Assembly: GCA_965222605.1 (NCBI GenBank)
Contig: OZ244960.1
Coordinates: 5,504,001-5,568,000, forward strand
Source: Candidatus Latescibacterota bacterium
Lineage (GTDB): Bacteria; Latescibacterota; UBA2968
DNA: 64,000 nucleotides
Reading direction: 5' to 3'
Part shown: positions 1-64,000 of the stretch, one piece after another
Position numbering within the stretch: the stretch's first letter is position 1
How the letters are laid out: the number at the start of each line of letters is the position of its first letter
Made by a program: the position numbers and the translations under genes
The notes under the pieces: model-generated
The model's database searches: none
What the model was told of the DNA's origin: nothing
What the model saw: only the letters and a program-made list of their open reading frames with translations

Positions 1-34
1 AAGTCATCAACTTGATCGTCTTCTCGTCCGCCAT
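1..34 (-). CDS. 5' start of a gene running off the window (MADEKTIKLMT...)
   Basis: ATG at 34-32 preceded by GAGGA RBS; frame open to the window edge. Confidence 0.4.
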   Translation of the reverse strand, partial: MADEKTIKLMT

Positions 35-69
35 CAGATTTCCTCGAGTATATTTGGGTGTTTATTCAT
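34..69 (-). pseudogene. sulfatase 5' stub (MNKHPNIL)
   Basis: Manual translation ATG AAT AAA CAC CCA AAT ATA CTC gives the typical sulfatase N-terminal PNIL strand, then runs into the next gene's RBS. Confidence 0.45.
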
Positions 70-168
70 AAAATCACATGAGGGGGAGGTCCTTCACATC
101 GAGGCCGTCCGCCTCCATGCGGTCAATAAGATGTAGATAAGTCCCATAGCGTGTGTTGTCCCAATGTT

Positions 169-1239
169 TCAGGCTCCTGCCACAGCGACCTCTTGTCCGG
201 ACGACGCCGAGGCATAGAGCGCGTCCATCAGACGCTGGATGCGGATGATTTCCGGTCCTGAAACGGGAGATGCCTCACCCTGACGGACGGCACTCAGAAA
301 ATCGTTGATCAGCCGCCTCATATCGTAGTCGCAAGGCTTCAACGTCCCTCTGGCGGGGGTCTCATCACGCCACGATCGTCCGTTGTCGGTCCAGATTCTG
401 AGTGGTGAGATGGACGCGGTACCCCGGTCTCCGAGAAAGGCCCAGCCTTCGCGTCTATCAGAGGGTGCCTGAAGAAAATTCGCTTCCACAGTCAGGATGG
501 TATTTCCAGACAGTCGAATGAAGCCAGCGCCGAAGTCCTCGAAATCCGGATCGAGCGACGCCGGATCGATGTCATCTCGTACGGGTCCGGCCGCCGACGG
601 GTAATCGGAGACCCGCTGGTGGCGGAATGCGCTGGCGGTCAGCGGTTCGGGGTTGCCAAGCAGCCAGAGCACGAGGTCGAGGTTGTGGATCGTCCAGTGT
701 GCGAGAACGCCGCCGCCGTTTTTTAGTCCACGCGACCGGTGCGCTCTCTTCGGCAGTCCGTAGGCACTCCCGCCCCACGTTCGAACGGCGTGTACGTGAC
801 CGAGGACGCCGTCTGCAATTCGGTCTCTCAGGTATCGGGACTCGTCCCAGGTTCGGTATTCGAAGCAAATGCTCAGCAGTCGATTGTTCGTTTCGGCGGC
901 GTGGACCATGTCCCGGGCCTCGCCCGCATTCATTGCCACGGGCTTCTCGCACAGGACGTGACATCCCGCCTCCAGGCACATCACTGCGAGGTTTCGATGA
1001 CTCGAGGGCAGCGTAGCGATGCTCACGACATCGGGCCTGGTCTTTTCGAGCATTTCTTCCGCGTTTTGAAATCCGGCGACTTCAAACTGCTTTCCGGCCC
1101 GCGACACCCGTTCGGGCTCCAGGTCGCATACGCCCACGAGCGAGCAGACCCCGGCATCTGCTGCCTCCCAGTAGGCTGGCAGATGTTGTGTGGTTGCAAT
1201 TTGGCCGCACCCGATTACGGCGACTTTCATCGGACTCAT
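169..1239 (-). CDS. Gfo/Idh/MocA family oxidoreductase
   Basis: VAVIGCGQIA Rossmann motif and HVLCEKP motif; start reassigned to MSPMKV after GAGGA RBS. Confidence 0.9.
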   Translation of the reverse strand: MSPMKVAVIGCGQIATTQHLPAYWEAADAGVCSLVGVCDLEPERVSRAGKQFEVAGFQNAEEMLEKTRPDVVSIATLPSSHRNLAVMCLEAGCHVLCEKPVAMNAGEARDMVHAAETNNRLLSICFEYRTWDESRYLRDRIADGVLGHVHAVRTWGGSAYGLPKRAHRSRGLKNGGGVLAHWTIHNLDLVLWLLGNPEPLTASAFRHQRVSDYPSAAGPVRDDIDPASLDPDFEDFGAGFIRLSGNTILTVEANFLQAPSDRREGWAFLGDRGTASISPLRIWTDNGRSWRDETPARGTLKPCDYDMRRLINDFLSAVRQGEASPVSGPEIIRIQRLMDALYASASSGQEVAVAGA

Positions 1240-1250
1240 GAGTTCCTCAT

Positions 1251-3721: not shown

Positions 3722-4576
3722 TTAACTTCTCTGCACGGCAAAACCGGCTTCTTCGAGAAGCTGTATGATTCGGTTGGCGGCTTCAATGTAGTTCTCTCGG
3801 CCGGAGACGTGGAATTTCTGAGAATGAAGCAAGTGTGGCTCAGTGGTGATATAGCCTGAGTAGTTCATTTGGAAAAGGCGTTTGAAGATTTCGGGATATC
3901 CGCATTTTCCGTCGCCAGCAATGCAGTAGGTGCTGGTGTCGCCAGGTTCTCGGATGTCTTTGACGTGGACATTGGTGATGTAATCTTTCAGGTTTTCAAA
4001 AATGTCGATTCCAACTTCGCCATGTGCACCAAAGTTGCCGGGGTCAAAGTTGAGCCGGAAATTCGGAGAATTAACATCTTGAAGTGCTTTTAAACATTCG
4101 GAGGCGGTGCAGACGGCTGACGTTTTGTTGGGTGGATTTTCGAGTATAAGGGTTTTATTTTCCGCGGCAGCTATTTCGGCCATTGCGGTGTACATTTCAA
4201 TGGCGATTGCAAACCAGTCGGTTCCTGCGTCGCCTTTTTTATATCCCATCGTGCGCAGTTGGGTTGTGCCAACGTAGTCGGCACGTTGAACGGCGCGGGT
4301 GATGTGCGATATGTCCTGTGCGCGATTGGCTTCGTCGGGTACTGTGCGGCCCACCTGACCGAGATAAGTGGTGACGGTAAAACCTCGTTCTTTGACACGA
4401 TCTGCGACACGGATGAATGTGTCGTCATTCATCTGATCGACCATTTCACCATAGGCCGCACGCAGTTCAATAAATTTGATGCCAAGTTCATCGAGCACAT
4501 CCAACCCTTCGTCCAGATCCCACGATGGACTGGGTTCGTCGTTAACACCGGCGATACGGATTTTTCTATCAGTCAT
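3722..4576 (-). CDS. sugar phosphate isomerase/epimerase (xylose-isomerase-like TIM barrel)
   Basis: LILEN, NFDPGN, VHVKD and ITTEPH metal-ligand motifs. Confidence 0.85.
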   Translation of the reverse strand: MTDRKIRIAGVNDEPSPSWDLDEGLDVLDELGIKFIELRAAYGEMVDQMNDDTFIRVADRVKERGFTVTTYLGQVGRTVPDEANRAQDISHITRAVQRADYVGTTQLRTMGYKKGDAGTDWFAIAIEMYTAMAEIAAAENKTLILENPPNKTSAVCTASECLKALQDVNSPNFRLNFDPGNFGAHGEVGIDIFENLKDYITNVHVKDIREPGDTSTYCIAGDGKCGYPEIFKRLFQMNYSGYITTEPHLLHSQKFHVSGRENYIEAANRIIQLLEEAGFAVQRS

Positions 4577-4612
4577 CTTTTTATCTCCATTGGAGCTCTC
4601 TTTTTTGGACTT

Positions 4613-5039: not shown

Positions 5040-5990
5040 TCATCTCCCAGTCAGACCCGTCTTCCCGGGTGGGCAGATCGTGTCTATCTTGTCCAGGGTG
5101 GCTTTATCGAGCTCGCCGTCGGCTGCTGCTGCATTCTGTTTTGCCTGCTCGGGCGTCTTCATTCCGGGAATAGGGCAGGTGACAGCAGGATTGGCGAGGG
5201 TAAACTTGAGCGCGAAATCAACCATGTTTGTCCCGTCAGGTACTAACTCGCGCAGTGCCGCGACCTTGTCGAGTTTGGCGAGGAAATCATCGCGTTGACT
5301 TTCTCCTGGATTCCAGTGATCTCGAACCGAGTCTTCAAACTTTGTATCTGTGGAGAATTTATCCGCCAAAAGACCCTGAGCTATTGGTCCTCGCAGTAAC
5401 ACCCCGATATTGTTGTCCAGGCAGTGGGGGAGGATGTCATTCTCAGGCCTCCGGTTAAAGAGCGAGTAGTTGATCTGACACGATGCGCAGGCACCCTCTG
5501 AGTCGAGCGCTTTGAGCGAATTCAGGTCGTTGGTGGATATCGCGTAGTGACGGATCTTTCCCTCTTTCTTGAGCAACTCAAAGGCTTCGACAAAGATCTC
5601 GGGATTTTCCGGGGTTCCTATGTGACACTGATACAGGTCGATATAGTCTGTATCGAGACGGTAGAGGCTTGCGTGACAGCAGTTGATGATGCTGTATATC
5701 GACTTGTATCCGAGGGGATCTTCCTGGCGCCGCCCCCAGTTGCCAGCCTTTGTCGCGATGTAGGCCTCGGATCTCTTACTTTTGAGTGCTTTACCTGTGT
5801 AGATTTCACTCTGCCCCAGGCCGTAGCCATCCGCGGTGTCAAACAAATTAACGCCCGCCTCGAGGGCTGCGCTGATGGTGTCGAGGGCCTGCTTTTCTTC
5901 GACCGGTCCCCACTGGCCACCAATGCCCCAGCATCCCATAGAGACGGCGCTTACGTTCCACCCAGTTTTCCCAAGCGTTCTGTATTGCAT
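5040..5990 (-). CDS. aldo/keto reductase
   Basis: MQYRTLGKTG, FDTADGYG, IATKAG, IDLYQCH. Confidence 0.92.
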   Translation of the reverse strand: MQYRTLGKTGWNVSAVSMGCWGIGGQWGPVEEKQALDTISAALEAGVNLFDTADGYGLGQSEIYTGKALKSKRSEAYIATKAGNWGRRQEDPLGYKSIYSIINCCHASLYRLDTDYIDLYQCHIGTPENPEIFVEAFELLKKEGKIRHYAISTNDLNSLKALDSEGACASCQINYSLFNRRPENDILPHCLDNNIGVLLRGPIAQGLLADKFSTDTKFEDSVRDHWNPGESQRDDFLAKLDKVAALRELVPDGTNMVDFALKFTLANPAVTCPIPGMKTPEQAKQNAAAADGELDKATLDKIDTICPPGKTGLTGR

Positions 5991-12662: not shown

Positions 12663-12706
12663 TGCGGTTCTCCTTCAGGTTGTAGGGACCAGGCAGAGTC
12701 TTAACC

Positions 12707-12800
12707 TTATGCTGATTTTCCGGGCGGGCAGATCGTGTCTATCTTGTCCAGGGTGACTTTATCGAGGTCGCCATCAGCGGCAGCCGCATTCTGTTTTCAC
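12707..12800 (-). pseudogene. aldo/keto reductase 3' stub, homologous to the end of 5040-5990
   Basis: 12717-12797 aligns to 5062-5142 with 9 mismatches in 81 bp; reads KQNAAAADGDLDKVTLDKIDTICPPGKSA*. Confidence 0.85.
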
Positions 12801-12803
12801 CTG

Positions 12804-13652
12804 CTATGATTTTTCCCGACGCGGCGTCACTCGCCAGTCGGTTCGCAGTTTGGCAACGCGATCGGCTGGCGGCTGCATGAAGCGCTTGACCCTTTCACTG
12901 GCTTTCGCTTGCAACTCAGGCCCGACCAGTTCCCAGGCATTGTAGAACAGCCGGTCGCCGTTTGGTACGATGCGGATGTTCAGGGTGCGCCGGGGCTCGC
13001 GAGTCTGATTTACGCCTGCGCAATGCAGGCCCCCCGCATTTACAATCAGTAAATCACCCGGATCACCAGTAGTCTGGATCTTGTTGCTGTCTGAATCCGG
13101 CTCGGGATCCATCATTTCGGGTTCATCGGCTTTAAAACAATGTGTGCGCGGAATCAACCGGGTGCCGCCATTTTCCGCTGAATAGCCGTCAAGCATAAAG
13201 AAGAACCACAGGCCGTTGTGCTTGCCTTCGTCCGTGAGGCCGGGCCTGAAGTCGCGATGGAAACGTCCCTGCCGCGCTTCGGGGTGATAGCGTACGGTGT
13301 TGGCAACAAGATCTAAAAAATGGTAAGTACCCAGAGCACGTTCGCAGATCCTGTGAACGGTGTCATGGTCGAGCAGATCCATGGCTGTTTTACCCCACAT
13401 GAAACAGGCGCGGGCGTTCGGATTGATTGTGAAGTTGCGTTTCCCATTTCCGTCGAGAATGCGCACTTCAGGCAACTTCATCCCCCCTCGCCACTCGGCG
13501 ATATAATCATCCGCAGCACGCTGGGCGATATCCCGAAGAGGGGCGAGATACCCGGGGGCGATTTGCTCCCGCAGGATGACATAACCGTTTTCTTGCAGAT
13601 CGGCTACGCGTGAGTCCAATTCTTCGCCGCTCATTGGATGGACTGGTTGCAT
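12804..13652 (-). CDS. PhyH family dioxygenase
   Basis: FHRD, NGGTRLIPRTH, PGDLLI...LH. Confidence 0.87.
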   Translation of the reverse strand: MQPVHPMSGEELDSRVADLQENGYVILREQIAPGYLAPLRDIAQRAADDYIAEWRGGMKLPEVRILDGNGKRNFTINPNARACFMWGKTAMDLLDHDTVHRICERALGTYHFLDLVANTVRYHPEARQGRFHRDFRPGLTDEGKHNGLWFFFMLDGYSAENGGTRLIPRTHCFKADEPEMMDPEPDSDSNKIQTTGDPGDLLIVNAGGLHCAGVNQTREPRRTLNIRIVPNGDRLFYNAWELVGPELQAKASERVKRFMQPPADRVAKLRTDWRVTPRREKS

Positions 13653-13682
13653 AGGTTGACTCCTTATTGTTCGTCTACGCCC

Positions 13683-13880
13683 CTACGGTGCCAAGGCTTT
13701 CAGGTAGGTGGTGCCTTGCGTGTCGGCGTGTGCCTGGACCCAATCAGATAGTCGGTTTCGGTGATCCGTTAGGATCTGAATGAATTCAGGATCATTGGCG
13801 AGGTTCTTTGTTTCAGTGGGATCCGAAACCATATCGACAAGCATTTCTTCCGACGTGCCATCGTAGTGGAAGATTGAAGT
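13683..13880 (-). pseudogene. sulfatase 3' stub
   Basis: EEMLVDMVSDPTETKNLANDP..HRNRL is a sulfatase C-terminal motif; no N-terminal part present. Confidence 0.75.
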
Positions 13881-13893
13881 TACGTTCAAGATG

Positions 13894-15366
13894 TCAACGA
13901 GGGTCGCCAGCTTCAATTGTTCGTTCCAGCAGCCTGCTGCGCATTGCTTCTTCCCGATCTCGATAATCCGGGTTTCCTGCCAGATTCACCAGTTCGCCCG
14001 GGTCGTTCTGCAAGTCGTAAAGTTCAGAACGATCATTCACATAATGTGCGTATTTCCACTTCTCGTTTCGAACCATGCGACCCCGAGAAAGGAAGAACGT
14101 TCCCGACTCAACCAGCGGCAATTCAGGTACGGGTTCAGTCCGACTTATGCCGGCTTTCAGCGCGTCCAGTTCTGCTTCTGGTCCTCCCTCTGGCAATGGC
14201 TGACGGCTGCCAACTTCCGCATAGGTACAGTCTCTTTCTGGAGCCATACCCGACATCATTTCGGTCACACTTCTACCCTGAACACCCGGCGGGATCGAGA
14301 TTCCGCTACTCTGGAGTAATGTAGGCATCAAGTCGATTTGCTCAATTTGCAGTGCGTTTGTTGCACTATCCCGTGCATGTTCCAAACCCCTTACGATCAA
14401 TGGGACCTGGACAATGCAGTCGTAGAATGCAGCTGTTTTCCGAATGAGTCCGTGTTCGCCCAGGTACTCACCGTGGTCACCTGTGGCAACAATGATAGTG
14501 TCGTCCCAACGACCAAGCGCTTTTAGTCCATCAAAGAATTTGCCCAAGCATTCATCCAGGTGCCTAAGCATGCCATAGTAATACGCCATTGTCTGCCGCA
14601 GCTGCTCGTCATCCATGAGATGCAGCCACCCGCCGTGATAGTAGACTTGCTGAACGAATGGTTTTGAGTCCAATTCACCCTCAGGTCTATGTGGGAGAAG
14701 CATGTCCTCTGGTCTGTACATCGTGGCAAAAGGTTCGGGAGCCCGATAGGGCGGATGAACATCGGAAAAGCTCAACCACACAAACGAAGGCTCGTCACCC
14801 TTCCGTTCAAGATAATCGAGGGCCTGATTCACGTTGGCTCTTGCTGGAGATTCAGCAGGATCGAAAGGGTAGGTTCCGCCATACCAGATTGGGTTTGGGT
14901 GATCTCCCCAACGGAAACGTCTTGTTTGTGATTCGAACACGGATGGGTCGATGGGTATTGCAGGCCCAGGAAATGGCTTCCCATAGGCTTCTCGCTGCTT
15001 TTGCCGAAGTGGTGACTCTTCAATACACGCTTCAAATCCTGCAGTTTTGGCATCTGGAAAACAGTGGTTTTTCCCAAATAGGCCACAGCCGACACCAGCA
15101 TCTTTCAAGAGCCCTGGAAGATGAAACCCTTCCTTTTCTTGCATCAACAGCGTGTTGTCTCTGGAACCTGTAACGCTGGGATAACGACCCGTGAAAAATG
15201 CGACCCGCGATGCGACGCAGAGCGGAGAAGGTACGGTGCAGTTTTCAAACCTGATGGCTTCGCTGGCAAAGCTATCCAGATGAGGTGTCGCTCCGACGGG
15301 ATTGCCATAGCATCCTAATGCGCGAGCGGCAAGATGCTCAATGGTGATTACGACAATGTTTTTCAT
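13894..15366 (-). CDS. Cys-type sulfatase
   Basis: MKNIVVI after GGAGG RBS; CVASR, GKNH, GDHG, ELYDLQNDPGE. Confidence 0.9.
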   Translation of the reverse strand: MKNIVVITIEHLAARALGCYGNPVGATPHLDSFASEAIRFENCTVPSPLCVASRVAFFTGRYPSVTGSRDNTLLMQEKEGFHLPGLLKDAGVGCGLFGKNHCFPDAKTAGFEACIEESPLRQKQREAYGKPFPGPAIPIDPSVFESQTRRFRWGDHPNPIWYGGTYPFDPAESPARANVNQALDYLERKGDEPSFVWLSFSDVHPPYRAPEPFATMYRPEDMLLPHRPEGELDSKPFVQQVYYHGGWLHLMDDEQLRQTMAYYYGMLRHLDECLGKFFDGLKALGRWDDTIIVATGDHGEYLGEHGLIRKTAAFYDCIVQVPLIVRGLEHARDSATNALQIEQIDLMPTLLQSSGISIPPGVQGRSVTEMMSGMAPERDCTYAEVGSRQPLPEGGPEAELDALKAGISRTEPVPELPLVESGTFFLSRGRMVRNEKWKYAHYVNDRSELYDLQNDPGELVNLAGNPDYRDREEAMRSRLLERTIEAGDPR

Positions 15367-15434
15367 TTTACCTCCGGAAACCACGTCCTTTGGGACGTGA
15401 TCAGAGAAAATGGGCTTTGCCGTAAAAGTTGATG

Positions 15435-15463
15435 TTGACAAACCATTTCATACTGATTACATC
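15435..15463 (+). promoter_or_regulatory. putative sigma70 promoter for a leaderless tnpB mRNA
   Basis: TTGACA-N17-TACATC, 7 nt before ATG 15471; same geometry as in the second copy. Confidence 0.45.
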
Positions 15464-15470
15464 TATCAAC

Positions 15471-16210: not shown

Positions 16211-16274
16211 TGTAGCGAATCGCCCCGCTGGGTGTGACAGCTACAAGCCACCGACTCTGGCGGTGGTAGTTGAC

Positions 16275-19878: not shown

Positions 19879-19937
19879 AGCTATAATATAACTGTCCGTC
19901 AGCAATAAAATTTCAGTATCACATTGAGGTGTTACTT

Positions 19938-43848: not shown

Positions 43849-43858
43849 AAAGACCTCC

Positions 43859-44008: not shown

Positions 44009-44010
44009 CG

Positions 44011-45333: not shown

Positions 45334-45454
45334 CTGGAAAAACGATGTGGTCGAGAAGGACAAATATTTCAAGATACCAAAACCGGATCAGTATGCACGG
45401 AACGTTGCCCAAAATACCATGGGTCAATCATAGAATCGGACCCTTTAAAACATT

Positions 45455-46951: not shown

Positions 46952-47000
46952 ACGCTCCCTCCAGAATAACATAAGGTCTTCATTAGGCGATTTTTATGTC

Positions 47001-48008: not shown

Positions 48009-48176
48009 CTACCGGTCAATACTTTCGGCAACGACACAGGAGATCGTAACTGTTTTGTACCCGCGGCTGATATTCGTATGACCGATCGCGATTGCATCAA
48101 TCTGCGATATTTCGAACAACCATTCCCGCACACTCCGCGAAACCTTTGGTTCATTGGTGCCCGGTACATTTGCGGG

Positions 48177-49249: not shown

Positions 49250-50035
49250 CTACCTTCTTTTTTTACTAATTTCAGCGATGGTGTCGCCGGTTATTTTGAC
49301 GGTGTGGGTATCTACTCGCTCAACGTCCTCACGGGCAGCTCTGGCCTCGGCACTATCAGCGGACTGATATTCGGTCGCAAAAATATACGGGGATGGGATT
49401 GTATAAGGTGCGATTTCCCTGATCCGCCCCATGGCCTTGCGAGCGCCTTCTCGAATCAGATCCCGAGCTTTAGTGGGGGAGTAAGTAAGAGCAGCCGTGC
49501 GGCTGAGCCCCTCTTTCACGACAACGCCTTCGATGTCGGGAACATAACGTCGGGCCTCATCTACAGCAGCCCGATCCCCGCTGACGAAAACCGTGGGCAC
49601 GCCAATCTCACCGGCATGAGCTATGTTGAAACCAATTTCGCCGATCAGTTCATCGTTCAACCAGCAGTTGGCAATGCTTCGGGAACTCCAGCTATGACAC
49701 AGCACACCCTCAGGTGTGTTTTCCATCGCGTGATGACCATACAAAAACTGCGCCTCAAATGTCAATCCCATCTCCCATGCAGAGCCCCTGGGGCGGCCGA
49801 ATATCACCCGGGCTTCACGGTGGATGTGTTCGATATTGATTCCACCACTGCCGTGTCCGTCCAGCACGATAGGATCTGTGGCGCCTCCTTCTATAGCACC
49901 GTCTATAAGAGCGTTGATCTCCAGAGTGGCCAGATATTTGGCCTGTTCGTTGTCGCGACCCCCGTCGTAAGTCTGAGTTTTGAAATCTACGACGCCAGCA
50001 GTGCCTTCCAAATCGCACAAGATAAGAATTCTCAT
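49250..50035 (-). CDS. peptidase M55 (DppA-like D-aminopeptidase)
   Basis: DLEG, DGHG, GHHA, LCHS, GEIG, VSGD. Confidence 0.9.
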   Translation of the reverse strand: MRILILCDLEGTAGVVDFKTQTYDGGRDNEQAKYLATLEINALIDGAIEGGATDPIVLDGHGSGGINIEHIHREARVIFGRPRGSAWEMGLTFEAQFLYGHHAMENTPEGVLCHSWSSRSIANCWLNDELIGEIGFNIAHAGEIGVPTVFVSGDRAAVDEARRYVPDIEGVVVKEGLSRTAALTYSPTKARDLIREGARKAMGRIREIAPYTIPSPYIFATEYQSADSAEARAAREDVERVDTHTVKITGDTIAEISKKRR

Positions 50036-50096
50036 GGAAACTCTCCTGATGAAATTGATGGGAGATGTTTCACGTTAAGGGGTACAATGGCGGTGT

Positions 50097-51200
50097 TCAT
50101 TCGCAGTACGGCACAGCCACGCGCTCCCCATTGCACATGGCCGATTCGTGTGCGCAGACGCCCGCAGCAGTCCAATTCGCTGCTGTGAGAACGTCCACAG
50201 TCGGAGGACGATGCTCGACGATGCTTCGGACGAACTCGTGGGCCATAGGGATCCCGGTTTGGCGTCGGATCCGGCTGGTGCGCACAACTTCCGCAATTGC
50301 ATCGGGCACCAGGTCAGCCATTGGGGGTAGGTCCATCCTCTCGATGGATACCGTGCGGCCCCGCTGACCATCAGGGAGGACACCGGCTTCCGCTTCGAAC
50401 ACCACGGGATCCTCGCCCGCAATCTGGGGCGACTCGAAACTCAGGCGGCTACCGTAGAGGTAGAAACGGTCGCTCAGGAAGCTTCGCGCAAACCGGTGGA
50501 AAGACGCTGTTATCTCACAGATCGCATCCAACCCTGTGAGTTCGAAGACTGCACTCTCCGTGGTATACGGGCTTCCGTACTGCCGTTCTTCTTCGGGGAG
50601 CGTTCCTGAGCCCCTGCACTGGACACCCGCCACTGTGCAGCCTGTCACATGAAGCAGGGGCCCAAGTCCGTGATAGCAGTAGTACATTGGCGGCAGGCCG
50701 CGCCAGTAGTCGGGCCAGCCTTCCATGTTCTGATAATGAACACCACGCATTAGTTGTAGGTCCCCAAACGCTCCGTCCCGGTACAGTCGCCGGACGTACA
50801 GACAGGCAGCAGAGGCGATTTCGGTCTCCATCAACATGTACGTCTGCCCGGTCTCCGTCTTGGTGGCGACCACACGGTCCACGTCTTCCAGACTGAGTGC
50901 CATGGGAATGGCACATGCGCAGTGTTTGCCCGATTTCATCACGGCGATTGACTGTTCCACGTGCAGCGGAATCGGTGTTACCAGATGCACTGCATCGTAT
51001 TCATCTGATGCCAGCACTGAAGCCAGGTCGCCGTGTCTCCGCTTGATTCCGAGTTTATTGCCGACGGTGTTCAGCAGCGTTTCATCCGGTTCGCAGATAC
51101 CGACGTGTGCCACATCCGGAAGAGCCGCGTATGCGGCCGCCCAGGTTTGTCCGAAGTTTCCGAGTCCCACAACGGCGATACGGATCTTTCCAGCAGTCAT
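50097..51200 (-). CDS. Gfo/Idh/MocA family oxidoreductase
   Basis: VVGLGNFG, GKHCACAIP, YMLMET. Confidence 0.87.
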   Translation of the reverse strand: MTAGKIRIAVVGLGNFGQTWAAAYAALPDVAHVGICEPDETLLNTVGNKLGIKRRHGDLASVLASDEYDAVHLVTPIPLHVEQSIAVMKSGKHCACAIPMALSLEDVDRVVATKTETGQTYMLMETEIASAACLYVRRLYRDGAFGDLQLMRGVHYQNMEGWPDYWRGLPPMYYCYHGLGPLLHVTGCTVAGVQCRGSGTLPEEERQYGSPYTTESAVFELTGLDAICEITASFHRFARSFLSDRFYLYGSRLSFESPQIAGEDPVVFEAEAGVLPDGQRGRTVSIERMDLPPMADLVPDAIAEVVRTSRIRRQTGIPMAHEFVRSIVEHRPPTVDVLTAANWTAAGVCAHESAMCNGERVAVPYCE

Positions 51201-51234
51201 CTTTTCATCTCCATTGATAATACCAAAGATCTAC

Positions 51235-51289
51235 CGGTCAATATGAATACAATATTGGGCTGCTTTGTACTGGTCACAAAGACCTCCTT
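51235..51289 (-). repeat. RBS plus first 14 codons of the sulfatase at 42487-43848 (5' stub)
   Basis: Matches 43806-43860 with 1 mismatch in 55 bp. Confidence 0.9.
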
Positions 51290-51378
51290 TAATCACCTCG
51301 GGTACTCGCGGCCTGTGCAATCGGGCAGCGGACGTTGCGAAGCGATTCTTCTTTACTTTCGACCATAAAACCATGCCG

Positions 51379-51891
51379 TTATGTAGGCTTCTGGTTCTCC
51401 TTTGAGTACTGCCAGAGAGCTTGATCCAGCGTTCGCATATCGAGCCCAGATTGATGGGCAATGCTACGACAACAATTGACGTAGGACTGCCAGAAATCGA
51501 AATTATAGTTGGACGGTTTATCGACCAAAAGCGTCCACAGAGCTCGAAAATCGATGATCGGATATGGATCTTGATGAAAAAAATGAAGGATCACTGAAGC
51601 CATCGGCCACTGGACCCCATCGAGGAGAGTCAGTATCTCAATCCGTGTTCTCTCATTTTCGGCCCCAAGCGCGATCGCCGTAATTTCTCGCACAAATTCT
51701 TCGGAATTTCGCGCTATTAAGTGGTCAACACGGTGCGATTTCCATCGTGCTACTGAACGAAGCTCATCCTTCGTGAGATATCCGCGATCTCGAATCCCTT
51801 CTTTAAGACCAGAGAGATCTATCTCGTCGGACTCGTATCTCTGAGCTAGCGGCTTCAGGTCAACTATTTTGCAGCGCAATCTGGGCTTCAT
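51379..51891 (-). CDS. hypothetical protein, HhH DNA-glycosylase-like, cassette-type
   Basis: WKS, LDGVQWPMASVILH, PIIDFRA, RTLDQALW; stop overlaps an ACATAAC R''-like box. Confidence 0.65.
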   Translation of the reverse strand: MKPRLRCKIVDLKPLAQRYESDEIDLSGLKEGIRDRGYLTKDELRSVARWKSHRVDHLIARNSEEFVREITAIALGAENERTRIEILTLLDGVQWPMASVILHFFHQDPYPIIDFRALWTLLVDKPSNYNFDFWQSYVNCCRSIAHQSGLDMRTLDQALWQYSKENQKPT

Positions 51892-52051
51892 TCGAACTCT
51901 TTGTATAATTATTGCCTATACCGGAAAATCTCGGAATATCCGAAGCACGCTGTCCTTGCGCGACGCAGAACAGCGCGACGGACAGCATCACTGATGCAGC
52001 AAGTTGTGAGGATAGAGACATAAGCCTGCATCCGACAGAGAAGACTTTTTT

Positions 52052-52111
52052 CTTCTTTTTTTACTAATTTCAGCGATGGTATCGCCAGTTATTTTGATGA
52101 TATGGGTATCT
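52052..52111 (-). repeat. peptidase M55 3' stub
   Basis: Matches 49254-49313 with 5 transitions in 60 bp. Confidence 0.88.
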
Positions 52112-52220
52112 CCTCCCACGATGTATCACCTAACAGCCCGTGAAGCCCACATGCTTTAGCTGTGGGAGTGTAAGGGCTTCCGGTTATAGCTTTAGCGTAT
52201 AACAAGGCTGGAAAACCACC

Positions 52221-52249
52221 TTGATGACCGAAAATATATTGAGTATATT
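52221..52249 (+). promoter_or_regulatory. putative promoter for a leaderless tnpB mRNA
   Basis: TTGATG-N17-TATATT, 7 nt before ATG 52257, no RBS. Confidence 0.5.
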
Positions 52250-52256
52250 TCTCAAT

Positions 52257-53348
52257 ATGAAACTAACACTTCAAATACAACTGTTACCGGACGCCGCCAC
52301 AGGCCAGAAGCTAAAAGCCACTATTGAGCGGTTCAACGAAGCTGCCAATTGGCTTGCTCCGAAGGCTTATGAGCGCAAGCTGGCGAATAAGTTTGCACTA
52401 CAAAAGCTATACTACTCAGACTTACGCCACTTGTTTGGTCTCTCTGCACAAATGGCTATTCGCTGTATTGCTCAAGTTGTAGAGGTGTATAAGCGCGATA
52501 AAAAAGTGCAGCCTTCGTTCCGTAAGCATGCAAGCATACCCTATGATCAACGCCTGTATAGTTTCAAGGGCATAGACAAAGTATCTCTGCTTACCCTTGA
52601 AGGCCGCGTGTTTGTGCCAATGTTGATGGGCAACTATCAGCGTGAGCAGTTCGGCTATGCCAAAGGACAGGCAGACCTTGTGCTCCGCAAAGACGGCAAG
52701 TGGTTCTTGCTTGTCTCTGTAAATGTCCCTGATGGTACGCCAATACCTACCACTGACTTTGTTGGCGTCGATCTCGGGACAACAAACCTTGCAGTAACAG
52801 ACGATGGTGAAACATTTTCTGGCGACACTGTTGAAAATGTCCGACAGAAGATGCACGATCTGAAAAAGTCGCTCCAACAGAAAGCGTCTGCCCTTGTCAA
52901 GCAAGGCAAGAGACCCAAGAATGTTCGCAGAAAACTCTCTGTTATCTCTGGCAGAGAGAGCAGGTTTCGTAGAAATACCAACCATATCATTTCCAAACGT
53001 ATCGTTGAGAAGGCTAAAGACACTGGCAAGGCCATTGCCCTTGAAGACTTGAAAGGCATACGCAAGAGCCAGAAACGGTTTCGCAAGCCTCAGCGTGCTA
53101 AAATGTCTGGGTGGTCTTTCTTCCAACTCCGCACATTCATTGAATACAAAGCAAGACGGGCTGGCATTTCCGTGATCCCTGTGGATCCGAAATACACCAG
53201 CCAAACTTGTGCCGAGTGTGGACATTGCGAGAAAGACAATAGACATACCCAGGCATCCTTCCTTTGCAAAGTATGTGGTCACAAAGACCATGCCGACCTC
53301 AACGCCGCTCGGAATATCCGAGCAAGGGCTTTGTGTCAACAAGCCTAA
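52257..53348 (+). CDS. tnpB: RNA-guided endonuclease TnpB
   Basis: RuvC D (GVDLG), E (ALEDL), D (HADLNAA) and CxxC..CxxC zinc finger all intact. Confidence 0.95.
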   Translation: MKLTLQIQLLPDAATGQKLKATIERFNEAANWLAPKAYERKLANKFALQKLYYSDLRHLFGLSAQMAIRCIAQVVEVYKRDKKVQPSFRKHASIPYDQRLYSFKGIDKVSLLTLEGRVFVPMLMGNYQREQFGYAKGQADLVLRKDGKWFLLVSVNVPDGTPIPTTDFVGVDLGTTNLAVTDDGETFSGDTVENVRQKMHDLKKSLQQKASALVKQGKRPKNVRRKLSVISGRESRFRRNTNHIISKRIVEKAKDTGKAIALEDLKGIRKSQKRFRKPQRAKMSGWSFFQLRTFIEYKARRAGISVIPVDPKYTSQTCAECGHCEKDNRHTQASFLCKVCGHKDHADLNAARNIRARALCQQA

Positions 53349-53426
53349 AGTTGCCGAGTGCATTTATGCACGAGCGACAAGCCCAACTGCTTCAGCGTTG
53401 GGTAGTTGACGTTGTCAAAATACATG
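53230..53426 (+). ncRNA. predicted omega/reRNA of TnpB (5' end approximate), guide about 53411-53426
   Basis: Expected from TnpB biology; stem-loops after the stop codon are conserved in structure with the second copy. Confidence 0.55.
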
Positions 53427-54848: not shown

Positions 54849-54849
54849 A

Positions 54850-55154
54850 GCGTCAACGATTTTTGCATTCATATTCATGATCCCGCCGCCGATTTTCTCG
54901 ACCCAGTGTTCTTTGTTGTAACTGGCAAATCTGTACAGAGGCCCTACGTGATTCATTCCAACTGGAATAAAGGGTTCGCCATCACCGTTAACCATGGTCC
55001 AAATCCCTCCTGCCTTCTCCAGGTGGACAAATTCTTTGTTCCCGATGATTCTAACTGCGTCTTCCTTGCCGATCTGAGCAAACGAATGGCTAAACCCGAC
55101 TGTACAAAACAAGAAGAGCGTTGTTGCTCTGAATAGAGTTTGTGAAAGTATCAT
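54850..55154 (-). pseudogene. 5' fragment of a secreted glycoside-hydrolase-like (GH50/agarase-like) gene
   Basis: Signal peptide, EKAGGIWTMVNGDGEPFIPVGMNHV, truncated against the convergent gene. Confidence 0.6.
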
Positions 55155-55167
55155 AACTGTTTCCTCT

Positions 55168-55446
55168 TTAAGGAAAATGAGCAACTGTCTCGCCGCTCTC
55201 ATCAAGAAATTCTAATCTGGCTGTACCTTCTGGTTCAACAGAAAGTCTTATTCGGATACGCCCCTGTCCATCGTATAAACTCACAAGAGCAAGATTATTC
55301 TTTTTGCCGACAAAAACTCGCTGCGCATAATGGTTTTCTACTTCCAGACGTTTCAATGCGGCTTCCTTTTCTGGACCTTCAGGAAGATTCGAGAGGCGTT
55401 GGAATTCCTCACCCCACTCGTTTATGGGCATTTCGGGACGATCCAA
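55168..55446 (-). pseudogene. 3' fragment of a hypothetical protein
   Basis: LYDGQGRIRIRLSVEPEGTARLEFLDE looks like a C-terminal motif; no clear 5' end. Confidence 0.5.
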
Positions 55447-55973: not shown

Positions 55974-56108
55974 TTACCCCAAGACCCCTCTGGAGACCAG
56001 ATAGGATTCGAGCGTCTCTACGGTTGTATAGTGATGGGTATTCAGCCCAACGGAAATAGCAGTTTCGACGTTTGGCAGCCTGTCGTCGATGAACAGGGAT
56101 TCCTCTAT
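55974..56108 (-). pseudogene. HAD phosphatase 3' stub
   Basis: Manual translation EESLFIDDRLPNVETAISVGLNTHHY...VLG*. Confidence 0.72.
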
Positions 56109-56213: not shown

Positions 56214-56423
56214 TCAGGTAACCCGCTCTCTTTGTTCACTTGGATGAAGCGAAAGATACTCTCTCACCTCGAGATTCATCCGATCTATTTCGGCCAGATA
56301 GCCTCCTGCCGATAACCAATAGTTCTGTGGATTGGTTTCGACCTGTCGAAGCTTTTCTACTTGTCGCTGAAAATACTGGATGCGTTCCTTGGTCGCCTCA
56401 AGCTCTTGATCGTTCTGAATCAT
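56214..56423 (-). CDS. small coiled-coil protein, partner of the upstream nucleotidyltransferase-like gene
   Basis: 69 aa, overlaps the upstream ORF. Confidence 0.65.
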   Translation of the reverse strand: MIQNDQELEATKERIQYFQRQVEKLRQVETNPQNYWLSAGGYLAEIDRMNLEVREYLSLHPSEQRERVT

Positions 56424-56871
56424 CGCTGATCACCTCTATTATTCCACGTCGTGTTTTGTCCCGCTTGATCTGCCAGTGTTCCAGTGCCTCCTGATCTCCG
56501 TCGATCGCAGCCAGCCGCCGTATCCAAAAAACACTGGCACCTTCTAAATTTTGCACGGCCAAATGGTCGAAAATAATCGCAGCCTCACCACCTACCTGAT
56601 TGGAATCAAACGAATCCTCCATCAACATAAAAATGTCTATATCACCAGGATAGGGTTTGGCCGTGACAAATGAACCAAACACTACAAATCTTGCTACCTG
56701 TCCAGTATTGGAGGCCAATCTATAGATGCGTTCCAGGCGCTGTCCAATCAGGCGGCGCTGGACAGTTCCTGTTCCAACAGGCAAGAGGTAATCGTCAATG
56801 CCATCACACTTCACGAGTAAGAGGCCATCTTGCGTGATCAGAATCCCTGAGATACGATCGATAGTCTTCAT
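56398..56871 (-). pseudogene. chimera of a NUDIX-like 5' stub and the 3' part of a DUF6932-like nucleotidyltransferase-fold gene
   Basis: ISGILITQDGLLLVK..YLLPVG, then FGSFVTAKPYPGDID. Confidence 0.6.
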
Positions 56872-57722
56872 TATTTTCTCACAAAAGCCAGTTTACCACT
56901 CATCCAGATTGCTATCAAAAAAACTCATAATAACCCTGGAATCCGGCCTATCTATATTTTCACTCCTGCCTACTGGACAATCGCTTATATTCAAGAAATT
57001 TCTCTTGAACCAACCCTTTTGCGAAGAGATCTTTGCTCAGATCAAAGCCTTCCTTGATCGAATCTGTTCGTCCAAAACAGTAGAAAGCTGCACCGGCATT
57101 CAAACAGACCAGATCCAGAATCGGTTCGGGGGTCTGGTACTGTAAAAGAGATAGGAAGATTTCTGCATTCTCATCACTATCACCACCTGGAATCTTACTG
57201 TAATCCCGTTTAGCTATCCCAAAATCTGAAGGCGAAATCTGGTATTCTCTGGTCACACCTTCGGCTACTTCAAAGATATGAGTGTGCCCAGAAATAGAGA
57301 TCTCATCAATCCCTGGCTCTCCGACAACAATTAAGAAGCGTTTACGCCCAAGATGGCGGAGCACTTCTACCAGTTGTCTGCCCATATCGACATCAATTGT
57401 TCCGAGTATCTGATATTGAGGATTGGCAGGATTGCATAACGGAGCGCTGAGATTGAAAATCGTCCTCCTGTCAACCATTTGTCTGGCGGTCACAACTTTT
57501 TTCATTACTGGATGGTATGTGCGGGCAAATAGAAAACATACATTCGTTCTCTTGAAAATGTCCTCCAAACGGTCATCTCTGAAATCAAACTCACAGTTGA
57601 GTTTCTCCAGCAAATCAAAGCTTCCATTCGGTCTCTTTGAGCCTTTATTGCCGTGTTTCACCACGGGAACGCCGCCAGCAGATAAAACGAACGCGGCGGT
57701 TGTAGATATGTTGAATCGATTT

Positions 57723-59433
57723 GAGTGTGTATCAAAAGCAAGGCGTATGAAGGGTATAAGAAATAGGGAATTAGAATCGTGTGCAAAACATGATAGGACT
57801 CCTATATTGGCAAACATTCCGTTAGCAAAACCATGTTTGCTTTCAAAAGGAGCCCTACCATGATGACAATATACGAAAAAGAAGCCTTGTTTGACCAGTT
57901 GGATGAAGAGTTTTCTCAAATCAAAAGGTTCGTTTGCCAAGCCGCAGGTCAAGTCGAAGTGCATGAAGTAGAGGGGAAGGTTTTTCGCCAACTTCAAGAT
58001 TTGGGTCGCCAACTATTATCCCGTTTTGTCCAATTATGTGGCACAGGGTATGAGGCAAACGGTTTCAAAGAGCAAGGTAAGGGTCAAAAGATGCGCTACA
58101 AAGGTTGCCAATCGGTCTCGTATCTGTCCATCTTTGGGTCTATCCCCATCTGTCGTGCGGCCTATGCCCGTGCCGATGGGAGCTATTTCTACCCCTTAGA
58201 TGAGCACTTGAATCTGCCAGCTCACAAATACTCTTATCTGCTGTTAAAATGGTTGGCACAAGATGCGGCACAGCACGACTTTCGCCAGGCGGTGGCACGC
58301 TTCAATCAGATTTTCGATCTGTCTTTATCCGCCTCATTACCGCAGCGTTTGGGGGATGAGATCGCCGCATATGTCACGCCATTTTATGACGCACAGCCCG
58401 CGCCTGACCAGGATTTGGAAGGGAGCCATTTGGCTATGAGTGCCGATTGTAAAGGTGTACGCATCCTAAAATCTGAACGGGCAGAGGGCGCGCTGGACAC
58501 ACCTGCTTGTGCCAGACGAAGGCGCGGTGAAAAACCGAGCCTGAAGAAAGATGCGGTTGTCGTAACCGACTTTTCATTTTATCCGCAAGCACGCACCGCA
58601 CAAGAGATAGTCAAAGGCCTCCTCAATCAGTTTACCCAAAAAGAGAAAGACCAAGCCCGGAAGAATCGCCAAAAACGCACCGCATTGGGACTTTGCCACC
58701 CCCGCGAACCCATCCACAAGCATGTCTTTGCCACCATGAACGGGAAAAAAGAGGCTTTCGAGCATCTTATACGACACGTCCATAAACGAGACCCAACCCT
58801 TGAAAAACCGATCATCGCCCTAATAGATGGCGAACCGGCTTTAGAACGCAGACTCAAAGAATGTCTCGAAGCCTACAACATGACGGATCAACTTGATGCC
58901 ATTATCTTGGATATTATCCACGCGACGGAATACCTGTGGGATGTCGCCACCTGTTTGTATGGCGAAAAAAACAAAAAACGCACCGATTGGATGCAAGACA
59001 AATTATACGCCTTGACAAGCAGACCCGTCGGGTATCTCATCGGCGCACTCCGACAGATGATGACCAAGAATAAAATCCGATTTTCTACCTCACAGAAACA
59101 GGTGCTAAAAAAGACCATCACCTATTTTGATAACCACCGTCATATGATGGACTATGCCACCTATCTGAAAAAAGGATATCCTATCGCTACTGGCGTCGTC
59201 GAAGGAACCTGTGGCTCCTTAGTCAAAGACCGAATGGAACAATCCGGCATGCGATGGTCTCTCTCTGGTGCACAAGCCATTCTTGCTCAACGCGCTGTTG
59301 TCAAAAATGACGATTGGAACGCATTTTGGAACTTTTATATCGACTCTGAACACCAACGGTTATACCCCAAGGTAGGATACAAAACGCTATACCAACGAGC
59401 TGCTTAAGCTTGCCTGTCATTTTGTACACACTC
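57723..59433 (+). mobile_element. ISKra4-like insertion sequence
   Basis: TIRs starting GAGTGTGTA at both ends; 9-bp TSD AATCGATTT at 57714-57722 and 59434-59442. Confidence 0.92.
57860..59407 (+). CDS. ISKra4-family DDE transposase
   Basis: SADCKG, IDGE, LDIIHATEYLW, GYPIATGVVEGTC..VKDRMEQSGMRW. Confidence 0.88.
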   Translation: MMTIYEKEALFDQLDEEFSQIKRFVCQAAGQVEVHEVEGKVFRQLQDLGRQLLSRFVQLCGTGYEANGFKEQGKGQKMRYKGCQSVSYLSIFGSIPICRAAYARADGSYFYPLDEHLNLPAHKYSYLLLKWLAQDAAQHDFRQAVARFNQIFDLSLSASLPQRLGDEIAAYVTPFYDAQPAPDQDLEGSHLAMSADCKGVRILKSERAEGALDTPACARRRRGEKPSLKKDAVVVTDFSFYPQARTAQEIVKGLLNQFTQKEKDQARKNRQKRTALGLCHPREPIHKHVFATMNGKKEAFEHLIRHVHKRDPTLEKPIIALIDGEPALERRLKECLEAYNMTDQLDAIILDIIHATEYLWDVATCLYGEKNKKRTDWMQDKLYALTSRPVGYLIGALRQMMTKNKIRFSTSQKQVLKKTITYFDNHRHMMDYATYLKKGYPIATGVVEGTCGSLVKDRMEQSGMRWSLSGAQAILAQRAVVKNDDWNAFWNFYIDSEHQRLYPKVGYKTLYQRAA

Positions 59434-59842
59434 AATCGATTTAAACCGCTTCCACCTGTGCCACACGAATCAATGGCGTCGGAAGAGAGAGGAACAGGTC
59501 TCGACTTGGCCAATAAAGCTCTCGAAAATCCGAGAATTTCATCGGCAGTCTCGTCCTTCTCGGAGAACGCTATGAGCAGTTCGGCGATCTGTTCGTCTGG
59601 CAGATTACTTTCCAGGATTGCACTCAGACATTGTTCAGACTCATCGGCTTGGAGAGATTCACCCTCTCTGAGTTTATCAATGTATTTCGAGATCATAGGA
59701 GGTTCCGCCTTATAGTTTCTCTCAGCTCTTCTACAGTGATCTGCCAGCACTTCTCAGAGATTATCTCGCGTCGAATGGCCGAAGGAGCGCAGCGACTGAA
59801 GCACGGACACATGGTTAAGCGTCCGTGTTGTTTTTTGTTATC

Positions 59843-61870: not shown

Positions 61871-61893
61871 GACTAGCGGTCTCAGCAGGTCAT

Positions 61894-62000
61894 TTACGTC
61901 GCTAAGATATTGTCGATTGTCTGCAGTTCGTCCTCGGTGAAATTCAAGTTGTCGAGGACACCGAGGCTGTCCTCGATTTGTTCGGGGCGGCAAGTCGTTA
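61894..62000 (-). pseudogene. aldo/keto reductase 3' stub
   Basis: RPEQIEDSLGVLDNLNFTEDELQTIDNILA* matches an AKR C-terminal motif. Confidence 0.75.
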
Positions 62001-62011: not shown

Positions 62012-63535
62012 CTACTGCTCCTCTCCGCGTCCATGGCGCGCGACGTCATACATTCCTCGAGCCATATCTCTAAGAAGCGCAAGCTGGTCTCCGTCCTTTG
62101 CATAAAGGTCATTATGTGTCCTACCTTCTAGGAATACGAAATGCGCTTGGGCATCCAGTTCCCTCAGTACCTCTCGGAGTTTGTAAACGGACTTCTCCAG
62201 ATAATGATCGTCAACCGTTCCGACGAATATGTGGAGTTTTCCGTTCAGATGCTCCTGTAGATCTTCCCAATGTTTCGAGATAAACCTTGAAATGTCGTAG
62301 TTATCCCTCCAGTAGCTTACGACTTCTCGATGTACTCTACCGTCCGCGCGATCAAACATCTCAAGCGGTGTGCCATCGGGCCCACGCGGTGAAAAGACCC
62401 ATTCCCAATGTCGGAAGATACCTCCATCAGGGCTGAGCAGACTCTCGAGTCTTGCAGAGTCGCGAGTGGTCGTGATGATTCGGTTGCGGTCCCGGGCAAT
62501 TCCTCGCAGGATCCCCTTCTCGTCTTGATAGAGGTTCGCACCAAACTCGTAGAGGTTGGTATTGAGAAACGCTCTAAAATCGAGAGAGTCAGGAGCGGTA
62601 GCCCAGGCACCACCAAATACCTTTGGATACCGCACCTGAAGCCATACGGAGGCCCACCCTCCTGAGCTGTGGCCCGTTAGCAAACGGCCAGATGAACGCG
62701 CATCCATCCTATAGCGCTGCTCCAACGCGGGGATCAGTTCCTCAGTCAGTGCCGATCCCCAAGGCCCATTATTCGCGCTATCCGCATACAACGTCGGACC
62801 GTTGGGCGTTGAATAGTCGAGGAATACCCATATCATCGGGTAGTCATTGGAAATGCCGGCCTGATAGACGTAATTTGCGAGATCAAAATTGCTCTTGTGC
62901 GTTGCGCCGAAGACGCCGTTTACGTAAACAGTCGGCCAAGTCTTTCTCGCGTCTTCTCTGTAGTCATCAGGCAAAAGCACCCAGGCGCGTAGGGCCACCG
63001 AGTGGTCCCAGAACGACTTAAGAAAGTTGCTTTGGAGCTTAAACTCTTGAAGATGGGGTTGGACAGAGGCTCGCCTTGCGTTGTCCGATTCACATTCACT
63101 TGAAGAGTCCCATTTCACACTCTCTGGGATCTGGTCGGCAAGGGTGAGTGTTACCGATTGCCCAAGAGGGAACTCGACCCTCTCCACGACAGAGAAGAGA
63201 TCACCTGGACCGCCTTGATCGTGATTGTATCTGTTGTCTCGACTTAGCACCGCCTGCATTCGATAACTACCCGCTGGCAAGGTGGAAAGGGCTGTGGGAA
63301 ACACGTTAGTCGATGTGTTCACTTTGACAAGGCGGTCGCTTCCCCACGCCACAATGTCCTGAGCAGCGACGTACATGTTGCCGGGAAATACGGCGTTGAC
63401 TTCAAGTCTTCTCTTCACTGTCCCGTCATCTGGTTCAACAAGAAGAAGCAGTCGACCGGAAGAATCTGCACTGAACGCCTCTGAGAGAGCCACGAACACA
63501 GTCCCACTCATTTTTCCTGGTCGTATCTTCTCCAT
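62012..63535 (-). CDS. putative esterase (enterochelin-esterase-like alpha/beta hydrolase)
   Basis: WVLLPDDY, DSANNGPWG, GHSSGG. Confidence 0.82.
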   Translation of the reverse strand: MEKIRPGKMSGTVFVALSEAFSADSSGRLLLLVEPDDGTVKRRLEVNAVFPGNMYVAAQDIVAWGSDRLVKVNTSTNVFPTALSTLPAGSYRMQAVLSRDNRYNHDQGGPGDLFSVVERVEFPLGQSVTLTLADQIPESVKWDSSSECESDNARRASVQPHLQEFKLQSNFLKSFWDHSVALRAWVLLPDDYREDARKTWPTVYVNGVFGATHKSNFDLANYVYQAGISNDYPMIWVFLDYSTPNGPTLYADSANNGPWGSALTEELIPALEQRYRMDARSSGRLLTGHSSGGWASVWLQVRYPKVFGGAWATAPDSLDFRAFLNTNLYEFGANLYQDEKGILRGIARDRNRIITTTRDSARLESLLSPDGGIFRHWEWVFSPRGPDGTPLEMFDRADGRVHREVVSYWRDNYDISRFISKHWEDLQEHLNGKLHIFVGTVDDHYLEKSVYKLREVLRELDAQAHFVFLEGRTHNDLYAKDGDQLALLRDMARGMYDVARHGRGEEQ

Positions 63536-63548
63536 GAGCTGGCATTTC

Positions 63549-63623
63549 GCATAACGTTTTCGCCGTGCCTGAACCGCGAAGCGGTTGGGCGCAGGCGCCG
63601 AAGCCGAGGGCACGATGTTAGGC
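63549..63623 (-). repeat. integron attC-like site (degenerate)
   Basis: R'' GCCTAAC 17 nt after a stop codon, R' GTTATGC 13 nt before the next ATG, internal AACCGC-TTC-GCGGTT hairpin. Confidence 0.6.
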
Positions 63624-63639
63624 GGCGTGTTGATCGTCT

Positions 63640-64000
63640 CTATAGAAGTGATCTGATCTCACCAACCGCTAACGGTAGTCTCCGAATCTGCCCTTCGAAG
63701 TCAAAGCGTGAGAGCACTGAGGTGTTCACCCTTCCCGGTTTCTCAATATAGTGCGACAGCTTATCAGCATAGTAGACCGCCCAGACGACTCCGAATGTTT
63801 CCCGGTCTCCGACTGAGAGTGGCCGCTCAGAAAGATAGCCTCGTAGGAAATCCAGCATCTCTTTCTCCAATAGAGATCGTCCCCCAATGAGATCATTCAT
63901 TAGCCATCTGTGTTGGACCATTGCAAGATCTACAGTAGCTGGAGCAAAAGAGCTGTAGACGTCGGTGAAACCGACTTTCTCTCCATCCGTGTGGACGTTG
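63640..64000 (-). CDS. 3' end of a phosphotransferase-like gene (runs in from outside the window)
   Basis: NVHTDGEKVGFTD..DLA..FLRGYLSERPLS. Confidence 0.55.
   Translation of the reverse strand, partial: NVHTDGEKVGFTDVYSSFAPATVDLAMVQHRWLMNDLIGGRSLLEKEMLDFLRGYLSERPLSVGDRETFGVVWAVYYADKLSHYIEKPGRVNTSVLSRFDFEGQIRRLPLAVGEIRSLL

Follow-up and report, generated by a model that had tools for sequence, protein, structure and literature searches.

The 64,000-bp stretch analyzed here in full (the window; positions 5,504,001 to 5,568,000 of the closed, single-contig, 6.34-Mb genome of a Candidatus Latescibacterota bacterium; GC content, 51%) carries a sugar-degrading gene array whose order this sponge-associated bacterium has probably reshuffled by recurrent local tandem duplication followed by loss of one or the other copy, together with plain gene loss, a few gains, and three insertion sequence (IS) insertions. 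The array, part of a plastic zone of ~170 kb, lies almost wholly on the minus strand (Pfam scans, about 50 open reading frames [ORFs]). The evidence consists of short gene ends (stubs) between intact genes, their intact counterparts, permuted gene orders among relatives, the direct orientation of local duplicates, and the junction sequences.

The genome holding the window (G000) was compared with three complete congeners (G007, G009, and G015), its closest relative (G031; 93 to 99.6% identity to G000), and five further loci of the genus (L035, L037, L042, L044, and L094), with shared blocks counted at ≥84% identity. Array genes are designated by letters and stubs by primes. An earlier description of the window (the original prediction) had listed 14 stubs; each was translated in six frames and placed in the three complete congeners, the genome's own ORF set was searched against all spacers, the window was compared with the genome by blastn, and Pfam matches were considered at E values up to 1. 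Metagenome runs holding this stretch were mostly from sponge, coral, and marine samples.

Nearly every gene of the window was found in G009, G015, and G007 in the same orientation and at 84 to 99% identity, in an order unlike that of the window in each. The five further loci and G031 had still other orders, and every shared block kept its orientation. The proposal that the array had been shuffled gene by gene was thus borne out against every congener examined. Of two control regions, one was fully collinear (4- to 7.5-kb blocks, 89 to 91% identity), and the other was mostly collinear (90 to 94%), with one same-orientation swap and gene-sized gaps.

Several loci retain traces of a gene at the place it has left. 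Intact F directly follows G in seven of eight genus loci; in G000, the stub f' follows G and intact F follows H. Between K and O, the place of sulfatase M in G009 and G007, G031 retains 67 bp of the tail of that gene, and its intact M lies ~7 kb on. In L037, a gutted G that has lost 742 bp internally (9-nt overlap) lies between K and I, and a second, intact G precedes F. L094 has a tandem pair of partial copies in complementary decay, one with C intact and only the tail of F, the other with a stub of C and F intact; stubs b' and a' are shared by both.

Within the window, 10 or 11 of the 14 listed stubs are real gene fragments, the count hinging on whether the one at 19938 is accepted from paralogue evidence alone, and each confirmed stub is co-oriented with its local gene run, as had been stated. 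Two more are plausible but not significant: a sulfatase-like head motif at 21526-21573 (best E value, 0.54) and an 11-codon mini-ORF on an insertion junction at 34-69. The remaining two found no support, since the first (44011-44085) is 96 to 97% conserved but has just 73 to 76 amino acids (aa) open in relatives, and the second (55168-55446) is 98% conserved in G031, where no longer frame was found. Pfam gave subthreshold matches for 3 of 10 stubs and none for the others. Three fragments had been overlooked: a GFO-like start on the AP_endonuc_2 gene C, a 60-bp internal gene piece, and a broken sulfatase (16241-16942).

Seven stubs sit where sister species hold a full-length gene at the matching position (genes for a 490-aa sulfatase, 324- and 333-aa aldo/keto reductases [AKRs], a 282-aa PhyH dioxygenase, and products of 492, 200, and 150 aa) and are therefore in-situ deletions. 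The sulfatase tail J', also present in G031, is 95 to 97% identical to aa 426 to 492 of the open 490-aa frame in G009 and G015, 1.2 kb of the gene body being gone in G000. The head of the 492-aa gene corresponds to aa 1 to 99 and aa 295 to 303 of the open frame in G015 and G009 (90.5 to 100% identity). For the tail of the 200-aa gene, no Pfam match was obtained, and the label "HAD-like" is a motif reading only. The AKR tail near the right end is 97% identical to aa 301 to 338 of the 333-aa frame in G007 and 94.9% identical to another truncated AKR 10.1 kb further on. The head fused to a DUF6932 ORF is 92 to 96% identical to aa 13 to 49 of a 150- to 155-aa frame in G009 and G007, and the DUF6932 body (56231-56777) has a paralogue with 78% identity at genome position 2833002. 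G009 and G015 hold the full 282-aa PhyH frame, and in G031, where the gene already neighbors sulfatase R, at least 268 aa are open; G000 thus lost 669 bp in place, up to the ribosome-binding site (RBS) of R, and kept the PhyH head. For the same reason, an earlier reading in which a 7.4-kb tandem duplication had created this junction as its novel joint was dropped. The sulfatase head in the plus-strand run at 19929-20066 had blastp E values of 5e-6 to 8e-4 against the heads of six sulfatase-sized paralogues in the same genome and no match at this place in the three complete congeners.

A second kind of stub consists of short direct copies of resident gene ends, namely f', r', and m55' (55 to 89 bp, 88 to 98% identity, 2.8 to 7.7 kb from the intact end). 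The stub f' matches the tail (5062-5149) of intact F (5040-5990) at 87.6% over 89 bp, 7.7 kb away and in direct orientation. It falls inside the 324-aa AKR frame in G007, G015, and G009 and retains the tail end of the G-linked type of F; relative to G009, 855 bp of the F body is gone, with the upper breakpoint inside the stop codon of G. The stub r', 35 nt upstream of a GFO-family gene (50097-51200), is 98% identical over 55 bp to 43806-43860 at the start of sulfatase R (42487-43859), 7.4 kb away and direct, and preserves the form that the PhyH-stop/R junction had before the deletion, as found in G031. It is missing from G009, G015, G007, and G031, is bridged by contigs of three runs, and may stem from a tandem duplication. 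Similarity between m55' and the intact Peptidase_M55 gene, a direct copy 2.8 kb apart, ends at the stop codon; G009 keeps m55' at 92.6% identity, and there the stub lies immediately upstream of that GFO gene.

Gene heads were also exchanged in frame. At the start of gene C (3722-4576), 48 bp are 89.6% identical to the head of a GFO gene, the N terminus differs in relatives, and the joint lies within ~10 nt of shared sequence. The 60-bp piece between B and V (40168-40227) derives from inside a 465-aa gene that lies between W and X in relatives, ~3 kb away; G031 and run X1 lack the 115-bp insert that holds it. Three more pairs, likewise direct, link the right end of the window to sequence 9 to 10 kb beyond (blastn).

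Breakpoints share no motif, have 0 to 10 nt of microhomology, and in many cases coincide with a signal of a neighboring gene: the f' deletion starts within the upstream stop codon, r' comprises RBS, start, and 14 codons, and m55' ends at a stop codon. We infer that selection keeps just those deletions that spare the expression signals of neighboring genes.

Orientation of duplicates across the genome extends the picture beyond the window. Low-copy duplicates of 40 to 400 bp within 30 kb of each other were direct in 192 cases and inverted in 1, as against 128 and 118 at distances above 100 kb; over all local pairs (0.3 to 40 kb), 432 were direct and 3 were inverted. In 49 of the local pairs, every one of them direct, one partner lies in a spacer and the other is the head or tail of an intact gene. 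Many other loci of the genome hold multi-kb tandem duplicates (81 to 95% identity). A stub census that rests on our own crude gene model counted 11 clusters of terminal fragments in the window, whereas 64 kb of the genome has 4.2 on average (maximum, 17). Stubs are thus denser in the window than in most of the genome (top 2.7% of windows) but not confined to it, as the 417 clusters and 49 local stub-partner pairs counted genome-wide show.

Under the explanation that we favor, multigene segments of a few kb to ~15 kb would be duplicated in tandem, and one or the other copy of each gene would then be removed by illegitimate deletion at 0 to 10 nt of microhomology. Surviving deletions would spare the stops, RBSs, and starts of neighbors and so leave short heads and tails, some fused in frame; lineages losing different copies would arrive at new orders with orientation unchanged. 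Tandem duplication would be the step that moves genes, and selection for dosage of a catabolic gene may start the cycle, as in the SNAP (selection during niche adaptation) hypothesis taken up below.

A unit ordered Y1a Y1b K J N1 G F N2 I E akr2 D H, when doubled, contains 8 of the 10 arrangements as subsequences (G000, G009, G007, G015, G031, L037, L042, and L044), with each stub at a lost copy; unit and rotation were derived from these same arrangements, which makes the fit a description and not an independent test. Several further points count against duplication and loss. L094 does not fit the doubled unit, and L035 is too short to tell. The window itself has no full-length recent tandem duplicate and no intermediate of the L094 type. 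B, V, and R lie together between X and PhyH in G000 and G031 and apart in other species, and the C-RidA block occupies positions 45 kb apart in G000 and G031; one doubling explains neither move. The gutted G of L037 is 96% identical to that genome's own G and 90 to 91% identical to the G of G000, which weakens one ancient duplication for all lineages and favors recurrent, lineage-specific ones. Identity to relatives varies among blocks from 84% to 99.6%, the baseline being 89 to 94%, so exchange between lineages may contribute. Repeated events, large duplications, or exchange between lineages must be invoked as well, and they are not separable here.

Six or seven stubs, among them J', the PhyH and 492-aa heads, and the 200-aa and AKR tails, have no intact copy in G000 and show loss only. 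Together with the three IS elements, the varying block identities, and the weak excess of collinearity among interlocking local pairs (77 versus 48, 62%), they would suit an account in which the erosion of accessory genes in a symbiont genome combines with unrelated rearrangements (IS moves, illegitimate insertion, and homologous exchange among co-occurring lineages) and tandem duplication plays no special part. We regard that account as unlikely. It leaves unexplained why short duplicates are direct in 192 of 193 local cases and about half so at a distance, why stubs of genes that are intact nearby stand at the ancestral adjacency, and why orientation is never altered; moreover, most junctions have no IS.

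The original prediction had instead read the stubs as the ends of former neighbors with which single genes arrive, an integron-like outcome. A recombinase moving single-gene cassettes at gene borders, with bits of former neighbors attached, would produce gene-sized, co-oriented blocks with borders a few to ~40 nt from starts and stops, as are found here. It could also account for the last 12 nt of W, the former upstream neighbor, that V bears at its new place, for the joint relocation of B, V, and R, and for an orphan 170-aa gene gained at a junction. Such capture is nevertheless very improbable. Most stubs are in-situ remnants (seven in-place losses) and three are short copies of resident genes; junction sequences differ from case to case and contain microhomology only. 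The search for repeats across the whole window returned no multicopy junction family, just pairwise stub copies, IS copies, and five chance-like distant inverted pairs, and the absence of a common att-like repeat, as had been described, rests on this search and not on an attC covariance model. Likewise, no tyrosine recombinase (PF00589) occurs in the window among 10 matches genome-wide, a search that used no IntI-specific model and did not cover serine and other recombinase families; the nearest matches are two broken fragments 36 kb before the window (genome positions 5467899-5468895).

The 170-aa gene (51379-51891) is the sole junction that looks like a true gain, in the G000 lineage. It adjoins a TnpB element and has no paralogue in the genome, and the gene head beside it is a copy of the start region of a resident sulfatase, not of a foreign neighbor. 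Gene-to-gene shifts in composition, also pointed out originally, are real (GC standard deviation, 0.049) and not unusual (0.041 for the genome; 13.9% of 45-gene runs are as heterogeneous). Composition was rejected as a sign of foreign origin, the spread of gene GC in the window lying within the genome's range. The first description was thus largely right in its observations, right on shuffling, and wrong on capture. In-situ deletion, which it had paired with conserved gene order as the outcome that would speak against it, accounts for most stubs, and gene order proved not to be conserved.

Chimeric joins between co-occurring relatives would be another source of permuted orders: the relatives' records are metagenome-assembled genomes (MAGs), several related lineages share sample types, and one assembly error is visible behind 38955. 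We give this artefact very little credence, still less than capture. Logan contigs from another study bridge the G000-specific junctions W/X, X/B, B/V, and V/R, and contigs also bridge the run from the GFO head to the end of the IS, in which r', the 170-aa gene, and m55' lie. Stubs recur at 91 to 99% identity in independently assembled genomes, and the order X-B-V-R is common to G031. Independent contigs thus support the junctions, as the original prediction had asked to be checked, except at 43835-44065, for which none of the contigs listed bridges the joint. Run X1 does not cover 50675-52008 and has different joints, and nothing was inferred from gaps in cover. All four runs, the probable source run included, add one base behind 38955 in gene B (38261-40116, plus strand), and so the frameshift by which this ~620-aa gene appears as a pair of overlapping ORFs probably arose in the assembly.

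Features of the window (positions are those of the window)
Feature	Positions	Strand	Evidence or remark
Catabolic array: sulfatase, PhyH, AKR, GFO, lyase, others	1-64000	-	Pfam; order differs in every congener
Foreign head on AP_endonuc_2 gene C (RBS and 8 codons)	4545-4592	-	Resembles GFO gene head at 51169-51216
f', 3' stub of aldo/keto reductase F	12706-12805	-	Abuts stop codon of PhyH gene G (12804-13652)
J', 3' stub of 490-aa sulfatase	13676-13886	-	Pfam SGSH_C 108-150/154, E 0.0055
Truncated sulfatase L (16241-16942) and adjoining degraded TnpB-type IS (15361-16274)	15361-16942	-	Sulfatase L, Pfam 1-171/301
Sulfatase 5' stub in plus-strand run	19929-20066	+	ORF 19929-20189
115-bp insert between genes B and V	40112-40227		Holds 60-bp internal piece (40168-40227) of 465-aa gene
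PhyH dioxygenase 5' stub, ~50 codons, then stop	43861-44026	-	Abuts RBS of sulfatase R; Pfam PhyH 2-32/213, E 0.008
r', copy of RBS, GTG start, and first 14 codons of sulfatase R, then stop	51235-51304	-	
170-aa orphan gene	51379-51891	-	Only in G000 among 21 genus genomes; no Pfam family
m55', 3' stub of Peptidase_M55	52052-52124	-	90.6% over 64 bp to intact tail 49254-49317
IS200/IS605-type element, TnpB only	52126-53413	+	Pfam OrfB_IS605 and Cas12f1-like TNB
5' stub of 492-aa secreted protein gene and 24-bp internal piece	54850-55169	-	
3' stub of 200-aa gene	55974-56108	-	Matches aa 156-203 of G007 open frame (200 aa) at 91%
Foreign head fused in frame to DUF6932 body	56778-56871	-	ORF 56398-56871; DUF6932 domain begins at residue 33
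1.7-kb IS with 524-aa ORF	57715-59442	+	Interrupts trpD-like gene; 3 other copies, 99.8-100% identical
Aldo/keto reductase 3' stub	61874-62000	-	Pfam AKR 263-290/291, E 0.054
Bridging contig, X19 record 22 (11.2 kb)	36001-43835		
Bridging contigs, X17 and X19 (both runs)	44065-48743 (X17); 44065-49035 (X19)		
Bridging contigs, X15, X17, and X19	50011-51264 and 51244-52155		

The array comprises 10 sulfatases, most of them beginning at profile position 1 within the first 4 to 33 residues, and 8 PhyH-type dioxygenases, one of which is fused to an alginate lyase (40228-42462), along with aldo/keto reductases, GFO/IDH/MocA oxidoreductases, a PL4 lyase, a rhamnose mutarotase, RidA, and a BNR sialidase-like gene (Pfam). 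PhyH-type dioxygenase and sulfatase genes alternate at least six times (6058-29975 and 40228-43926). Most sulfatases seem to be signal peptide free, with the Pfam domain beginning at residues 4 to 10, and, judged from sequence, appear to be cytoplasmic (predicted). The alginate lyase-PhyH gene contains a 39-bp tandem duplication (41131-41208), of which run X1 has one copy fewer.

As for the mobile elements, the TnpB element has copies elsewhere in the genome at 92 to 94% identity, and its site is empty in G009. The 1.7-kb IS splits the trpD-like gene into a Glycos_transf_3 part on one side and a Glycos_trans_3N part on the other, and its flanks are contiguous in G009 and G007; its 524-aa ORF belongs to no Pfam family (best match, UPF0236; E value, 0.015), and the element is possibly a recently active member of an undescribed transposase family. 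At the left end, a GFO-family gene (169-1230) that lacks close paralogues in the genome is missing from G009, G015, G007, and G031, in which gene A directly adjoins positions 1-45 or 1-69; either G000 gained it or it was lost elsewhere. The next 8 kb (64001-72400) holds half of an MFS transporter (Pfam 2-181/347), a 130-aa AKR tail, a partial DDE transposase, and small accessory genes, and because of these further truncated genes, the scarred zone extends past the window. Elsewhere in the genome, a ~28-nt motif (G000 positions 1,000,558-1,000,585) has dozens of copies with 96 to 100% identity on both strands in G007 and G009 and looks like a REP-like dispersed repeat of the genus.

Chimeric N termini, mini-ORFs made from a neighbor's start region, and truncated genes such as those described here would be called as genes by annotation pipelines. 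Changes of bacterial gene order are usually credited to inversions, mobile elements, and horizontal transfer. In this zone, the marks of another route are still visible as stubs that have intact partners nearby or stand at ancestral adjacencies and, in sister genomes, as tandem intermediates. Across ~20 closed or near-closed congeners, it may be, and we advance this tentatively, the first base-resolved natural record of the reshuffling of an array by duplication and random loss in all its stages, with copies in tandem, decay that is complementary between copies, stubs left at ancestral adjacencies, and gene heads swapped in frame. Literature searches on duplication-random loss, differential loss, and operons, with supplements outside their scope, returned no case of a bacterial array.

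Among known systems, integrons likewise have co-oriented, gene-sized units in an order that varies between relatives; in contrast to them, the array is without attC-like repeats, attI, or a nearby IntI, and its junctions are heterogeneous. Innovation-amplification-divergence (IAD) models concern the functional divergence of one gene, with tandem amplification of a gene under selection and then loss of surplus copies, whereas the visible outcome in this array is reordering and scars. Closer is tandem duplication-random loss (TDRL) in animal mitochondria, with the same permutation of order on one strand and pseudogene remnants in spacers, although the gene set of mitochondria is small and fixed and gains no genes; among the matches listed, the term occurred in mitochondrial papers only.

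The nearest counterpart is SNAP, a published hypothesis with experimental support in Salmonella, in which duplication is followed by random gene loss from either copy to give a new linear order (Brandis and Hughes 2020, PMC7055797; Cao et al. 2022, PMC9016547). As the footprint to seek, the 2020 paper names pseudogenes with matching active copies, and its authors state that direct evidence in modern genomes is lacking because a finished event leaves no unique mark (PMC7055797). The array resembles SNAP in its rearranged genes of unchanged orientation, in direct remnants with intact copies nearby (f', r', and m55'), in the tandem copies with complementary decay in L094, and in the gutted and intact G of L037. 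It differs in scale and setting: both the formulation of SNAP and its tests in laboratory Salmonella concern very large duplications (1.66 Mb) between repeats, whereas here units of a few kb to ~15 kb in one accessory array would have been involved, in events repeated many times in wild uncultured genomes, with dosage selection presumed. If the explanation is correct, the array supplies the evidence that the SNAP authors called missing, and the process works at the scale of single genes in the operon-like catabolic arrays of symbionts; since the marks are still present, the hypothesis can be tested on natural data. The mechanism is already known, and the value of the array is that its footprint is natural, resolved to the base, and still legible.

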